Positions 3,820 through 14,940 of a stretch of DNA of 24,088 bases are shown in pieces; positions within the stretch are counted from its first letter, which is position 1, and each line of letters begins with the position of its first letter. The notes under the pieces are model-generated. The model searched no databases. It had not been told where the DNA came from and saw only the letters and a list, made by a program, of their open reading frames with translations. The stretch is taken from the NCBI RefSeq assembly GCF_004010195.1, contig NC_057749.1:11100841-11124928 (forward strand), written 5' to 3'. This DNA comes from Chiloscyllium plagiosum (Eukaryota). The position numbers were made by a program, and so were the translations under genes.

Positions 3820-4468
3820 TGTGACGATGCTGTGGCTTTAAGAAGTCATTTTGTCTTGGGTTTTTTATTTGGAGTGAGGTTGTAAGGCTGAGTCAGCGGG
3901 CAGTCTTCTAAAACCCATAGAATAAACAGCTTGTGAGGCCTTGGGTTTTTTTTTTAAACAAAGTTGGAACAATAGAAGCAGCTTGGCTGGGTATAGTCAG
4001 CTCTCACAGACCAGGCTTTCTTTTTTTTTAAGTGTTTAGGTTTAGCTTTAAGCAGTTGCTGTTGTGGGCTTGAAGAAGTAGAAGCTATCTTTTCTCTCTG
4101 TTGGTTACAACTAGAAGCTGGTATATCTCTCTGCTGCTGGATTACCTGTGAGACAAATTTATTTTTCTGAATTTGCCTTTTTGCCAAGGGGTGTTTATGG
4201 CACATTACCATATACTGGAACAGTTAATTAGTAATAGTTACTGTATTTATTATTCTGTTAAGCTTTCCCATAGAGTTATTACTCTAAATTCTTTTTCTTT
4301 GGTGGTATTTTGTGTTTAGATAAATTATTTTGCTTAATATCGAGTAGCTTGACCGAATGAATTGTATCTAGAACACAGCACATTACACCTGCCATTAAAT
4401 TAACAAAAAGTTAGGGTTTAGGCTACCTTCTTAAAATATTTTAAGGGAGTCTGGCCTCGTCCATAACA
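3820..4468 (+). mobile_element. Solo LTR (649 bp) with 4-bp TSD
   Basis: Starts TGTGAC at 3820 and ends ATAACA at 4468; flanked by the exact direct repeat GACT (3816-3819 and 4469-4472); no coding capacity. Orientation is a best guess. Confidence 0.8.
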
Positions 4469-4524
4469 GACTGTAAACTGAAAAATGAAAGATGCGCTGC
4501 TACATAGATAAATATACCAAGAAA

Positions 4525-4618
4525 CCGCCTGCTGAAGGAGGAGTGCTCCGAAAGCTAGTGCTTCCAAATAAACCTGTTGGACTGTAATGTGACATTGTGC
4601 AATTTTTAACTTTGTACC
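4525..4618 (+). mobile_element. Penelope-like repeat end (family B) with mutated hammerhead core
   Basis: CTGCTGAAGGAGGAGTGCTCCGAAAGCTAGTGCTTCCAAATAAACCTGTTGGACT matches the reverse complement of 11690-11755 and 15475-15540; the core reads CUGCUGA instead of CUGAUGA. Confidence 0.8.
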
Positions 4619-4619
4619 A

Positions 4620-5345
4620 AGAAAGACTTTGAAACTTGAAGATCAAGGGGGATTGCATTTTGCTGCACAAGATTATTACTTTTGAAGTAATGAAGTGGAT
4701 ACTGAATAAACAGAGTGACAGCAGGGATCTTTGAGTTAAGGGAAAACTGCATAATGATTGCCTTCAGATTAGTCCTACAGCAGTTTGTTGCAGACTTGTG
4801 AGTGCAGTGCATTCAGAGAAATCCAGAAGCCTGCAAACAAGAAGAACTTCTGACCACCTCTCTCTGCAGGTGAAAAAGACAAAATTGAAGGCTCTAAAAA
4901 TAAAGATTTGAAGACAAAATAAAACATACGTCTAACCTAATGAGTTACTCAACTGAAGACTGACCATCACCCTGCAGGCAACATTGGTTTTTTTGTGGTC
5001 ATGGTGACAATCAAAAGATCTCTGAGAAACACTTCATCCCACACTTCTGGTATGGACTCTTTTGCGTTTAATAGTCTGTTTTTATTTCTTTAATTCATGA
5101 ACAAATGTGTGTGTGTTTGGGTTTGAAAAGGATAGGTTTTAAGTTGCATTGTAGTAATGAGTAATTCATTTCTGTTTTGGCTGCTTATAATAAATAGTTA
5201 CTTTCCTGTTAATGACAAAACCTGGTCTGAATTACTTATGTCTTGAACAGGAGCCAATCAGGCAAACTGATCATCTTGGTGACTTAATTAGACAATTAGT
5301 TAGATGTTGTGTGAAATTGTGCAGCTCGATTATTGGCACACCCAA
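4620..5345 (+). mobile_element. Possible old LTR-derived remnant
   Basis: Non-coding; shares short ordered motifs with 12540-13404 (AAACCTGGTC followed by GGCAAA near the 3' end); no TSD found. Confidence 0.3.
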
Positions 5346-6298
5346 TAATATTTGTAGTTCTGTTAGAAAGGAAAATAATTAATGCAAAACTTGCATATAA
5401 CATTTCATAGAGCTTGGTACATCTTCAGGAGGAAGCTCAAAATGTCACAATAACCCCAGGCATCACATTTCCCCTTGTCAGTGGCAATTAAATTGCTACC
5501 ACTATTTACTGAGAATATAATACAGATAAGGAGAAAGAAAAATACTTCAAAATCAAAAAGGATAATAATTACACAATTTATTCAGTTTACTGGGCATTTC
5601 TTCCACAAAAGTAGCTTATTGCAGTCAGAAATCACACAGTCAGAATCCAAATCATTATTGCAGTCACTATACCACTTGTAGGCTGTGGCACCAACTTGGC
5701 TTACCTAAGGAAGGCAAGTATGTGTATGAAAGCTATGACGAAGACAGCTTGAAGAGCACTATCCAACTGTTGGCTTAACAGCTCATAGAAATCCCCAAGG
5801 CCCTTAAAAAACATAATCAAAATGAAAAGACAGAATAAAAACAATACCGGGAGAAACCGAAGGTTTGGTCAGATGTTGAATTTAACAGGAGAAGTAAAGC
5901 AACCTAAGGACAGAATTAAAAAGCAAGGTTTAAGTGTTTGATGTCATCAAAACTGAAACTGAGGTGGTAAAAGTGTTCTGCACAAGAGGATAGAGATGAT
6001 TAAAATGAGAGCTTTGGGCTGGGAACCTGTTGTAAGGCGGAGTCGGAGAGAATGAGATACATCAATGAGTGTTAGATTTGAGAACGCTAGGGTTTGGAAG
6101 ATACTGTAGATCAGTGAAGATAGGGGTGGGACAGGATTTGGGAAGTGAAGATTTAGATAAGCTAAAGTTTAAACTATAGAAAATGGAGGTCAGCCTGGAG
6201 AACACTGGAATTGTTAATGCTAGTAGTGACATAGAGATGAGAGCCGAAAATGTGTTGCTGGAAAAGCGCAGCAGGTCAGGCAGCATCCAGGGAACAGG

Positions 6299-6338
6299 AG
6301 AATCGACGTTTCGGGCATAAGCCCTTCTTCAGGAATCC
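6299..6338 (-). ncRNA. Minimal type I hammerhead ribozyme motif (mirror copy)
   Basis: Minus strand reads GAUUC-CUGAAGA-A-GGGC(UUAU)GCCC-GAAAC-GUC-GAUUC; identical core, with one U-U mismatch in helix I. Predicted cleavage after position 6305. Confidence 0.75.
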
Positions 6339-6371
6339 TGAAGAAGGGCTTATGCCCGAAACGTCGATTCT
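6332..6371 (+). ncRNA. Minimal type I hammerhead ribozyme motif (PLE-type)
   Basis: GAAUC-CUGAAGA-A-GGGC(UUAU)GCCC-GAAAC-GUC-GAUUC: intact CUGANGA and GAAA core, helix II, helix I GAAUC/GAUUC and a vestigial palindromic helix III (ACGU). Predicted cleavage after C6365. Confidence 0.8.
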
Positions 6372-6769
6372 CCTGTTCCCTGGATGCTGCCTGACCTGCT
6401 GCGCTTTTCCAGCAACACATTTTCAGCTCTGATCTCCAGCATCTGCAGACCTCACTTTCTCCACATAGAGATGAGAACCAATATTATGGAGATGGGAATT
6501 AAGTGGGTTTTAATCATGGACAGAACATAGGCCTACAAGAACATGGAAAAGACATCAAGGTTACTCATCTCGAGAGAGTGGTTAGTAAGTGGAGTAAAAT
6601 CTGTGGTATCCATGCAGGGCAACAGCAATAATTACTGTCTTGCTGATAGGAAGGGATCAGAGGTAGCGGGTAAGAGGAGGTGGGGTTAGTTCATTCAAAA
6701 CATTATGTTGAACAAGCTGACTCAGAGCACGAGGACAGTAAAACAATGTGGTTGAGGAGTGAAATTGGT

Positions 6770-6990
6770 AAACAATACTTTATATTGCACATTTTTTCAG
6801 TGCAAATTGGATTTAATACGATTGAAGAATTTTAACCATTATTTGTAGAATGCGAACTATCCCTACCTGTATTGGCTATAACGCGATTCCGACCCCATTA
6901 GTTTAAACGGCCCAGCTATTGTGTGATTTTCTTATAAAGCGAGAACGCATGAGAACAGAACTATTGCATTATTTCAGAAGCCACCATACC
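6770..6990. mobile_element. Probable degenerate non-autonomous DNA transposon (Tigger/pogo-like MITE)
   Basis: About 220-bp block differing in composition from the flanking L2, with repeated ATAACGCGA/ATAAAGCGA/AATACGA motifs of the kind seen in pogo-family MITEs; TIRs too decayed to fix. Confidence 0.4.
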
Positions 6991-9619: not shown

Positions 9620-9978
9620 TGTCCCTCACCTCTATCCAAGGCCCTAAAGGAGCCTTCCACATCCAAAGTTTTACTTGCACATCCACCAATATCATTTATT
9701 GTATCCGTTGCTCCCAATGCGGTCTCCTCTACATTGGGGAGACTGGACGCCTCCTAGAGAGCGCTTTAGGGAACATCTCCGGGACACCCGCACTAATCAA
9801 CCAAACCGCCCCGTGGCCCAACATTTCAACTCCCCCTCCCACTCTGCCGAGGACATCGAGGTCCTGGGCCTCCTTCACCACCGCTCCCTCACCACCAGAC
9901 GCCTGGAGGAAGAACGCCTCATCTTCCGCCTCGGAACACTTCAACCCCAGGGCATCAATGTGGACTTCAACAGTTTCT
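9620..9978 (+). mobile_element. Penelope-like element GIY-YIG endonuclease fragment (frameshifted)
   Basis: 'FTCTSTNIIYCIRCSQCGLLYIGETGR' (GIY-YIG with CxxC insert), a frameshift near 9758, then 'ERFREHLRD...VAQHFN...EERLIFRLGTLQPQGINVDF'. Confidence 0.92.
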
Positions 9979-10076
9979 TCAACAGGTCTGTTTCCAAGCT
10001 GTATGACTCTTATTTATTTGCCTGGTTAAGTGACAAAACAATCTCCTTCCTGTACTCACTAATGAATGTTTTATAC

Positions 10077-11566: not shown

Positions 11567-11666
11567 GGTACAAACAATGACTCCTGATGAAGGGCTTTTG
11601 CCCAAAACGTCGATTTCGAAGCTCCTTGGATGCTGCCTGAACTGCTGTGCTCTTCCAGCACCACTA
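11567..11666 (+). mobile_element. 100-bp family-A PLE fragment with mutated hammerhead and 11-bp TSD
   Basis: CCTGATGAAGGGCTTTTGCCCAAAACGTCGATT...GGATGCTGCCTGAACTGCTG...TTCCAGCA is homologous to 6337-6415; direct repeat AAGGTGAAAGA at 11556-11566 and 11667-11677. Confidence 0.85.
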
Positions 11667-13689: not shown

Positions 13690-14940
13690 TTTGCTGTGTT
13701 TGTTGGAGGTCACATATTTTAGCTTCAGGACATTGTTGCAGGAGATCCTCAAGGTAGTTTCGTAGGCCCAACAAGCTTCAATTAGTTCACCAATGACCTT
13801 CCCTCCCTCATAAGATCAGAAGTGAAGATGTTTGCTGATGATTTCATCATGTTTAGCACCATTCACTACTCCTCAGATAATGAAGCAGTCCATGTCTAAG
13901 TGCAGCAAGACTTGAACAATATCCAAAAAAAACAAAAGAACTGTGAATGCTGGAAATCAGAAACAAAAACAGAAATTGCTGGAAAAAGTCAGCAGGTCTG
14001 GCAGCATCTGTGGACAGAAATCAGAGTTAACATTTCAGGTCCAGTGGGTTCTCACTAGACTCAAAACATTAACTGTGATTTTTCTCCACAGATGCTGCGT
14101 GACCTGCTTTTTTTCCAGTAATTTCTGTTTTTGTTGTTGAACAATATCCAAACTTGGGCTGACAAGCGGCAAGTAACGTTCATGCCACACCAGTGCAAGA
14201 AATGACCATCTTTAACAATACAGAATGTACCCATTTTCCTTTAATATTCAATGGCATTACCATCATTCAATTTCCCAATACCAACATCCTGATGATTACC
14301 ATTGACCAGAAACTAAACTGGATGAGCAATGCAAGAACAGGTCAAATGCTAGGAATCGTGCAGTGAGCAACTCACCTTCTGACTCCCCAAAGCCTGTCAA
14401 CTATCTATAAGGCACAAATCAAGAGTGTGATGGAATACTCCCCACTTGCCTGGATTATTGCAGCTCAAACAACAGAGGCATTACTGCATCCAGAACAAAA
14501 CAGTCTGTTTGATAGTAAGCACCACATCAACAAACATTCATTTTATCCACCACTGACACTCACTGGCAGCAATATGCATCATTTACAAGATACACTGCAG
14601 ATATTTACCAAGGTTCCTTGGGCAGCACCTCCTAAAACCACAACCACTATCATCTATGAAGACAAGACAGCAGACACAATGGGAATGCCATCACTTGCAA
14701 GTTCCCGCCAAAAAAAAAAGCCACTCACCATCCTGACTTGAAAATATATCACTGTTCGACCAGTACTGCAGGGACAAAATTCGGACATTCCCACTCAAAA
14801 AGCTTTGTGGGTGTACCTGTACCAGTTCACTGCAGCAGTTCAAGATGACAGCTCACCAATTTCTCAAGGTCAAAAAAAAATGGGAAATAAATGCTGGCCT
14901 AGGCACCGATGCCCATATCCCAAGAATGAATAAAAAAGAA
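13690..14940 (+). mobile_element. Non-LTR retrotransposon (CR1/L2-group), RT end to 3' tail, decayed
   Basis: 'NDLPSLIRSEVKMFADD' at about 13792-13842 and 'IYKAQIKSVMEYSP' at about 14403-14445; A-rich end at 14925-14940; interrupted by the fold-back at 13928-14136. Confidence 0.82.
13928..14136. mobile_element. Older fold-back PLE-derived element (family C) with 16-bp TSD
   Basis: Imperfect inverted arms at about 13962-14046 / 14053-14135 plus a single-copy tail at 13928-13961; exact direct repeat TTGAACAATATCCAAA at 13912-13927 and 14137-14152. Confidence 0.85.

Follow-up and report, generated by a model that had tools for sequence, protein, structure and literature searches.

The fold-back insert and its setting

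The stretch analyzed here, a 24,088-nt window of Chiloscyllium plagiosum contig NC_057749.1 (positions 11,100,841 to 11,124,928), carries a 220-bp fold-back insert at window positions 6243-6462, bracketed by an exact 14-bp target-site duplication (ACATAGAGATGAGA) that was identified by direct reading of the sequence and by a repeat search. All coordinates given below are positions in this window, and strand signs are relative to it. The insert consists of the last ~127 nt of a Penelope-like element (PLE), present twice, head to head, within that single duplication (Table 1). Its right arm and tail match the 3′ end of a long genomic copy, L059, at 92% identity over 127 nt, and its two arms stop outward at different points of the parent sequence, which we designate site A (the outer start site, at the end of the tail) and site B (the inner start site, ~35 nt upstream).

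Table 1. Features of the fold-back insert and its flanking duplication
Feature	Position	Strand	Basis and remarks
Target-site duplication, left copy ACATAGAGATGAGA	6229..6242	.	Identical to 6463-6476
Untailed arm, copy of PLE 3′ region	6243..6334	-	Outer end GCCGAAAATG, ~35 nt short of the family 3′ end, at site B
Minimal hammerhead motif, mirror of 6338-6365	6305..6332	-	Sequence reading
Central base	6335..6335	.	Junction GGA-A-TCC, i.e. AAT between CAGG and CCTG
Tailed arm, paired part: 5′-truncated copy of PLE 3′ region	6336..6427	+	Sequence reading; similarity to long copy L059
Minimal hammerhead motif CUGAAGA-A-GGGC-UUAU-GCCC-GAAA-CGUC	6338..6365	+	Sequence reading
One-sided 35-nt tail	6428..6462	+	Ends at the fixed family 3′ end ...CTCACTTTCTCC, site A
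Target-site duplication, right copy ACATAGAGATGAGA	6463..6476	.	Direct reading and repeat search

A first-pass annotation, made from the letters alone, had described an exact 14-bp duplication, perfect 89-bp arms around one central base, an axis lying 3 nt from a CUGAAGA core and a minimal hammerhead ribozyme core on each strand, and our reading agrees with it on all four points: the two duplication copies are identical, the arms pair perfectly over 6246-6334 and 6336-6424 around the axis at 6335, CTGAAGA begins at 6338, and both cores carry the Penelope-type features set out in PMC4209133. Two of its statements require amendment. The absence of arm divergence holds for the perfect part, while the pairing extends to 6243/6427 and the outermost paired triplet contains one mismatch (6245 C versus 6425 A). 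The short one-sided tail is present and had been counted from 6425; the unpaired stretch starts at 6428. The repeat search reports arms of 101 nt at 98% identity, the excess over the real arms being a chance run into the duplication. RNA of the whole unit is predicted to form a 90-bp hairpin at -193 kcal/mol, against -65.8 ± 4.8 kcal/mol for 200 shuffles, a predicted stability far beyond chance.

Short-read contigs from two runs of one species label, which come from separate studies, together support both flank junctions: run X15 covers 5900-6254 and 6437-6800 with 0 differences, and run X18 covers 5900-6275 and 6438-6800. A contig from a run under a different label (X1, organism A) crosses the left junction over 5969-6300. 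No contig from these three runs bridges the entire palindrome. Among the best-supported joints listed for three DNA-type runs none skips the insert, a result that says nothing either way on polymorphism. The window has a GC content of 41% and a CpG observed/expected ratio of 0.30, compared with 53% GC and 9 CpGs in the insert, a contrast in keeping with a recent insertion into methylated vertebrate DNA. L002, a copy located on a different chromosome, departs from the insert at one axis base only. Because the arms differ at a single, outermost position and L002 is nearly identical, we consider the insertion to be young, as the first-pass annotation had proposed, with no date assignable.

Further decayed pieces of the same PLE family lie elsewhere in the window, at 9905-9981, 11582-11660 and 13975-14008; one of the three derives from 339-416 nt upstream of the 3′ end and the other two from the arm region, where they are 82-85% identical to L059.

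Family size and parent element

An exact 32-nt tail motif of the family has 61,177 matches in the genome, versus 0 for a control. A search with the 220-bp insert as query returned at least 40 full-length copies at 93-100% identity (40 of 750 candidates were scored), and the 30 look-alike loci that were inspected share the same two ends, each with a different duplication. This search picks its candidates by rare words and is hence biased towards look-alikes; all 30 loci carry a rare left-end variant whose 19-nt word has 569 matches in the genome, and the search was not used for the question of axis position. Owing to this bias, two position-ordered samples were drawn instead: sample a comprises the first 30, by genome position, of the 61,177 exact tail matches, and sample b the first 30 of 19,066 hammerhead-core matches with a fixed T nine bases upstream.

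The parent is exposed in a long copy, L091, in which an RVT_1 reverse-transcriptase domain (4185-4883 of that copy, E = 3.1e-18) lies upstream of a GIY-YIG endonuclease domain (5204-5611, E = 8.7e-5, 23.2 bits versus a cut-off of 22.6), followed at ~5768 by the hammerhead and then by the same 3′ end, so that hammerhead and 3′ end lie about 400 nt beyond GIY-YIG. The two domains are in different frames, and L091 is therefore a decayed copy. A piece of the reverse transcriptase has 150 scored matches in the genome, some of them inside open frames of 740-1195 aa. The insert is thus the extreme 3′ end of a canonical endonuclease-bearing PLE and not a separate element.

Two further observations concern the wider family. 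Directly upstream of the family copy at L045, positions 1270-1400 hold the inverted arm of a related but distinct family (AAAATGCTGGAAAATCTCAGCAGG...) with a decayed hammerhead-like stretch, which indicates that the genome contains several such families. The copies L004 and L012 have near-identical flanks, ~60 nt long on both sides, and so lie inside another repeat or a duplicated segment.

Outer ends and target-site duplications

Sample a contributed 19 fold-backs and sample b 12; three belong to both, which leaves 28 unique ones. A duplication of 10-17 bases flanks the whole two-arm unit in 23 of the 28, and since a single duplication encloses both arms, both must arrive in one event. Sample b was not selected for the tail, and in each of its 12 fold-backs exactly one arm reaches the tail end. 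The partner arm stops 26-36 nt short of the tail end in 22 of the 27 fold-backs from both samples in which this could be assessed; in the five exceptions it stops 21, 51, 72, 84 or 89 nt short, and one further locus was masked. Among the 15 sample-b arms with no detected inverted partner, five end at the tail end and ten at 24-37 nt from it, although for the long ones a partner may lie further upstream.

The mismatch at the outer edge of the insert (left GCCG, right CAGC) looked systematic among the biased look-alikes. Counted genome-wide, the left-G/right-A state occurs 31 times and its reciprocal 21 times. This absence of directional bias led us to reject the asymmetry both as a trace of inheritance of the whole palindrome and as a quirk of the start site, and we read the outer mismatch as an ordinary change in a single arm.

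Axis position, junctions and inner ends

In contrast to the outer ends, the axis is variable. Tailed arms in sample a measure from 45 to over 532 nt and the sampled axis range is 41 to over 500 nt, with a strong mode at 121-134 nt (15 of 30 tailed arms). Measured from the 3′ end, the hammerhead core begins at 125 nt, and the mode lies just upstream of it. When the first 100 core matches were inspected, 46 were found to extend upstream with the exact parent sequence TTCCTCATT and 6 to have the insert's kind of junction. Near-modal junctions, in which both arms reach the core with 0-16 nt between them, number 5,790 genome-wide. The first 50 of these sites comprise 11 of the insert's own type, AAT, 4 of type AATT and 5 of type AATSATT, and the remaining 30 all differ from one another, while the AAT junction recurs in different subfamilies (L001, L004, L013 and L028). 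The uniqueness of all 30 unusual fillers argues against their inheritance and for a new junction with every insertion.

The inner ends also often differ between the two arms of one unit, as in the pairs 80/129, 52/257, 47/126 and 132/103. Of the 28 pairs, 10 have an untailed arm and 2 a tailed arm that exceeds its partner by more than 3 nt, and in no case is an arm of ~129 nt joined to one of more than 140 nt, though long arms are common among single arms. At L027 both arms carry tails, the arms belong to two different subfamilies, and the junction is a clean GGAATTCC. The substitutions counted in 29 look-alike copies comprise 22 that both arms carry and 64 that are confined to one arm, and 25 of those 64 fall on the 8 CpG positions (of 78). 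This pattern suggests that changes inherited from the source are mirrored between the arms and later decay is not. Taken together, these observations fit two separately primed cDNAs that as a rule copy one RNA, or RNAs of one source, as far as a shared 5′ end, and fit a single snap-back cDNA less well.

A second, smaller pile-up of inner ends was noted 192-208 nt from the 3′ end (five arms from three elements: L069, L074/L075 and L081; contig C1). It adjoins a CACATTTCC motif that resembles the start-site sequences CACATTTTC and CACTTTCTCC.

Hammerhead motifs

On the + strand the motif boxes are CUGAAGA (6338-6344), GAAA (6358-6361) and CGUC (6362-6365, with GUC at 6363-6365), with an extra A at 6345 and a helix II formed by GGGC and GCCC (6346-6349 and 6354-6357) around a UUAU loop. 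G6346 pairs with C6357, and helix II is present in the predicted fold of a single arm. ACGU at 6361-6364 provides palindromic positions 15.2-16.2, loop 3 being absent, and the predicted cut falls after 6365, 97 nt from the 3′ end. The minimal hammerheads of metazoan PLEs, with conserved core boxes CUGANGA ... GAAA ... UH, likewise have, according to Cervera and de la Pena (2014, PMC4209133), an extra base between 9 and 10.1, a G10.1-C11.1 pair and palindromic positions 15.2-16.2 with no loop 3; the insert shares with them the core boxes, these three features and a weak helix I, and the same source records motif pairs on opposite strands 100-700 bp apart. The insert departs from them in that its apparent helix I is supplied by the junction and not by parent sequence. 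The hammerhead models in Rfam gave no match at the gathering score, nor, on 341 bases, at E values up to 10; motifs that lack a helix III hairpin would, in our reading, probably escape them.

Helix I deserves separate consideration, since the first-pass annotation had each hammerhead take part of this helix from across the axis. In the long copies the parent CAUUC stands opposite GAUUC and 3 of 5 positions pair, where a helix I of 4-5 bp supplied by the element's own flanks would be expected. In this copy GGAAUC and GAUUCU pair solely through the junction; the pairing depends on the one-base-shorter junction and differs in other junction types, and the same stretch is predicted to pair with the core. 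With as little as 11 nt of the other arm on the RNA, CUGAAGAA is predicted to be paired to UUCUUCAG. We consider the helix across the axis to be accidental, and in RNA that extends into the other arm the hammerhead core is predicted to be tied up in pairing. As the motifs lie on opposite strands, no single transcript contains both in sense orientation.

Dimers of single arms were assessed by cofolding, in which a hand-built hammerhead dimer scored -18.9 kcal/mol versus -24.1 kcal/mol for a different predicted dimer. The stretch GAAACGUCGAUUC at 6358-6370 is a near-palindrome, and cofolding gives it an extended intermolecular duplex, at the latter value, that would compete with an active dimeric hammerhead.

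Hammerhead cleavage was also considered as the origin of the arm ends. None of the arms in the position-ordered samples ends 97 nt from the 3′ end, where the cut is predicted; the closest end at 94-96 nt, and cleavage was rejected on this ground. The result agrees with the finding that cleavage is dispensable for insertion in vitro (PMC11167929). We conclude that the hammerhead motifs are passengers: their place, downstream of the putative RNA 5′ end and upstream of the start sites, is what brings them along.

An ATG in hammerhead loop 2 opens a frame of 26 codons (6354-6430, +) with its stop in the tail. The ORF (open reading frame) of the lizard PLE PAc is reported to begin at stem II (PMC11167929); unlike that ORF, the frame in the insert does not continue.

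Proposed origin and alternatives

The data establish to which family the insert belongs and what its parent is, and they show that the outer ends are fixed, that the axis varies and that junctions arise de novo. On this basis we read the palindrome as one dead-on-arrival integration product of a canonical endonuclease-bearing PLE, and assign this reading a probability of roughly 0.82. The first of two alternatives offered by the first-pass annotation, a recurrent PLE integration product, fits all tests run. The supply of sources poses no difficulty: a pattern search of the genome found 6,587 + 54 tailed arms that run upstream into parent sequence, several of which are identical to the insert's arm over the 80 letters displayed, and such longer copies therefore suffice. 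The fold-back itself, which lacks the upstream pseudo-LTR (pseudo-long terminal repeat) region, would not be a source of new copies.

As to mechanism, we suggest tentatively, and with rather less than even confidence, that the fold-backs record how PLEs integrate, one short transcript being copied twice from both cut strands and the run-off cDNAs then being joined. The PLE enzyme would cut both target strands, and each 3′ end would prime cDNA synthesis on the element RNA, one cDNA starting at site A and the other at site B, which would leave a one-sided tail. Synthesis of both cDNAs would stop where the template, a short RNA starting 3-5 nt upstream of the hammerhead core, has its 5′ end, and the two cDNA ends would then be joined by a template jump or by blunt or microhomology joining, creating the axis. 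The short RNA is probably a transcript from the pseudo-LTR of longer copies, starting at an initiator-like TCATTCC. A conserved ...CCTTTTATCTTAGCCTGCTGGACAAACTTTCCTCATTCCTGAAGA precedes the core in 13 of 14 aligned longer copies, and TTTTATC lies ~33 nt upstream of the A in TCATTCC. By its consensus and its spacing from TTTTATC, TCATTCC resembles an initiator. A transcript from this site to the tail end would measure 129-130 nt, matching the mode of arm lengths. A rotifer pseudo-LTR shows a TATA-plus-initiator arrangement (Arkhipova et al., PMC3846280). A promoter may thus lie in the pseudo-LTR of the longer copies. We did not find this twin-copying scheme for PLE fold-backs stated in the literature searched, supplements not being covered.

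Several points weigh against our reading of the palindrome and against its mechanism. The position-ordered samples are small: their 60 loci all lie within the first 3.6 Mb of a single chromosome, and BLAST places the ends to within a few bases only. No intact ORF has been linked to the exact 3′ end. Several of the fillers at the junctions consist of segments of helix II, which fits some self-priming or repeated template switching. Finally, fold-backs tailed on both arms occur at 172 sites, many with arms identical over the 64 letters displayed, and the pairing of site A with site B is accordingly a strong preference and not a rule.

Of the alternatives, the one that survives best is self-priming, in which a single PLE cDNA snaps back at the RNA 5′ end, copies itself and stops ~35 nt before its own start. 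Variants symmetric between the arms follow trivially from such a process, many junctions are perfect or near-perfect palindromes, the fillers built of helix II pieces suggest fold-back priming, and Arkhipova et al. (2013, PMC3846280) took palindromes at inverted junctions as a sign of self-priming. An arm copied from another, however, can be no longer than it, yet of the 28 pairs 10 have an untailed arm that exceeds the tailed one by more than 3 nt, and 2 have the reverse; were the untailed arm instead made first, the second arm could not acquire a tail. The two subfamilies joined at L027 are likewise hard to derive from one cDNA, and a fixed stop 35 nt short has no known reason, whereas a second start site at that position has been published (PMC11167929). 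We consider self-priming unlikely as the origin of the insert.

A self-propagating, ORF-less element similar to a MITE (miniature inverted-repeat transposable element) or a SINE (short interspersed nuclear element) would be transcribed whole or from its axis, mobilized in trans, and would inherit its palindrome; in its MITE-like form the first-pass annotation preferred this idea. It draws on the full-length look-alikes at 93-100% identity with their common ends and different duplications, on the identity of L002 apart from one axis base, and on the near-modal junctions, among which no single type is more frequent than the insert's own (11 of the first 50). The look-alikes, however, were selected by rare words, and all 30 inspected carry the rare left-end variant. 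A fixed axis, which the first-pass annotation had set beforehand as the mark of propagation, appeared only in that biased search, whereas the axis varies from 41 to over 250 nt in the position-ordered samples. The same junction type occurs in different subfamilies, all 30 unusual fillers are unique, and the left end lies at a reverse-transcription start site and not at a transcript start. Variants common among copies are symmetric between the arms, the candidate asymmetry showing no bias (31 versus 21), and RNA of the whole unit is predicted to be a 90-bp hairpin. Self-propagation is, in our estimation, very unlikely.

A functional RNA gene, either a cooperating hammerhead pair or a small-RNA hairpin precursor, is more improbable again. 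Both hammerhead cores are intact, the predicted hairpin is extremely stable, and several microRNA-precursor models match with E values of 1e-9 to 1e-6. These microRNA scores (mir-3158, MIR6136 and others) nevertheless lie far below gathering (best 54.7 versus 97 bits) and reflect hairpin shape only, and the remaining Rfam matches were likewise to hairpin-shaped models well under their cut-offs; the sense hammerheads never occur in one transcript, 11 nt of the other arm are predicted to be enough to pair the core away, and insertion has left thousands of such variable by-products. An error of assembly, in which two copies were collapsed or chimerically joined, is scarcely credible as the source of the palindrome. 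In its favour, no short-read contig spans the palindrome, and PLE inverted repeats are known to trouble assemblies (PMC8557442). Against it, independent runs reproduce both flank junctions with 0-2 differences, an exact 14-bp duplication brackets the unit, and 23 of 28 sampled loci show this architecture together with a duplication.

Implications

The locus is a real, young and ordinary by-product of a very abundant PLE, and it should not be annotated as a ribozyme gene, as a microRNA hairpin or as a mobile element of a new class. The abundant family with its very young members is more useful than the single locus: the regular pairing of tailed with untailed arms, the correlated inner ends and the de novo junctions give genomic support to the two-site, two-strand finding made in vitro, and the pairing together with the common 5′ limit suggests a testable model for PLE inverted structures. 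Were the twin-copying scheme true, it would account at once for three PLE traits that have long been puzzling, namely the palindromic junction, the tail on one side and the inverted pseudo-LTR, and the family of more than 61,000 copies would be a natural data set for it. On the practical side, perfect 90-bp palindromes of this type probably cause difficulties when such genomes are assembled and reads are mapped to them.

Comparison with known systems

Two classes of short element were considered and rejected. The insert is not a MITE or fold-back DNA transposon, as its right end has 35 unpaired nucleotides and the duplications of the family, at 10-17 bases, have no fixed length. Non-LTR retrozymes, reportedly described by Cervera and de la Pena in 2020, are said to carry tandem hammerhead repeats. 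In a preprint by Li et al. (2026) they consist of direct tandem repeats and are thought to move via circular RNA. The insert resembles retrozymes, as presented there, in being short, ORF-less, hammerhead-bearing and derived from a PLE pseudo-LTR. It is not one of them: its copies stand in inverted and not in head-to-tail orientation, and positions 5900-6800 contain no tandem repeat.

Twin priming of LINE-1 yields 5′ inversions. As in LINE-1 twin priming, both target strands would here prime cDNA on one RNA and the cDNAs would then be joined. The two differ in that the LINE-1 cDNAs cover different parts of the RNA and so give an inversion, whereas both cDNAs here would cover the same stretch and give a palindrome.

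The closest biochemical counterpart is PAc, the PLE of the green anole, which in vitro uses two adjacent internal start sites for reverse transcription with a tail between them, and whose enzyme cuts and extends both target strands with no need for hammerhead cleavage (Frangieh et al. 2024, PMC11167929). In the insert, as in PAc, the start sites are 30-40 nt apart and lie downstream of the hammerhead, and the tail is the stretch between them; that study is biochemical and concerns a lizard element, and its main text does not discuss inverted copies (PMC11167929). From the genomic copies we suggest that start sites of the PAc kind may underlie the fold-backs.

The nearest structural counterpart is the typical insertion of an endonuclease-bearing PLE, which Arkhipova et al. 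(2013, PMC3846280) and Craig et al. (2021, PMC8557442) describe as a pseudo-LTR with an adjacent inverted 5′-truncated copy, a 30-40-bp tail at one end and a target-site duplication. The suggestion of the first-pass annotation that the locus represents an under-described system does not stand beside these accounts, in which the inverted 5′-truncated copy, the one-sided 30-40-bp tail and the duplication are already published. The insert has the same head-to-head inverted 5′-truncated copy, one-sided tail and duplication of variable length, and it shares with such PLEs a hammerhead in the pseudo-LTR region, the lack of poly(A) and a parent reverse transcriptase with a C-terminal GIY-YIG (PMC3846280, PMC8557442). 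Unlike the typical unit, the insert has both copies cut, to about 92 and 127 nt, so that two stubs are all that it comprises; its family is unusually abundant, with 61,177 tail matches, and the truncation points pile up just upstream of the hammerhead.

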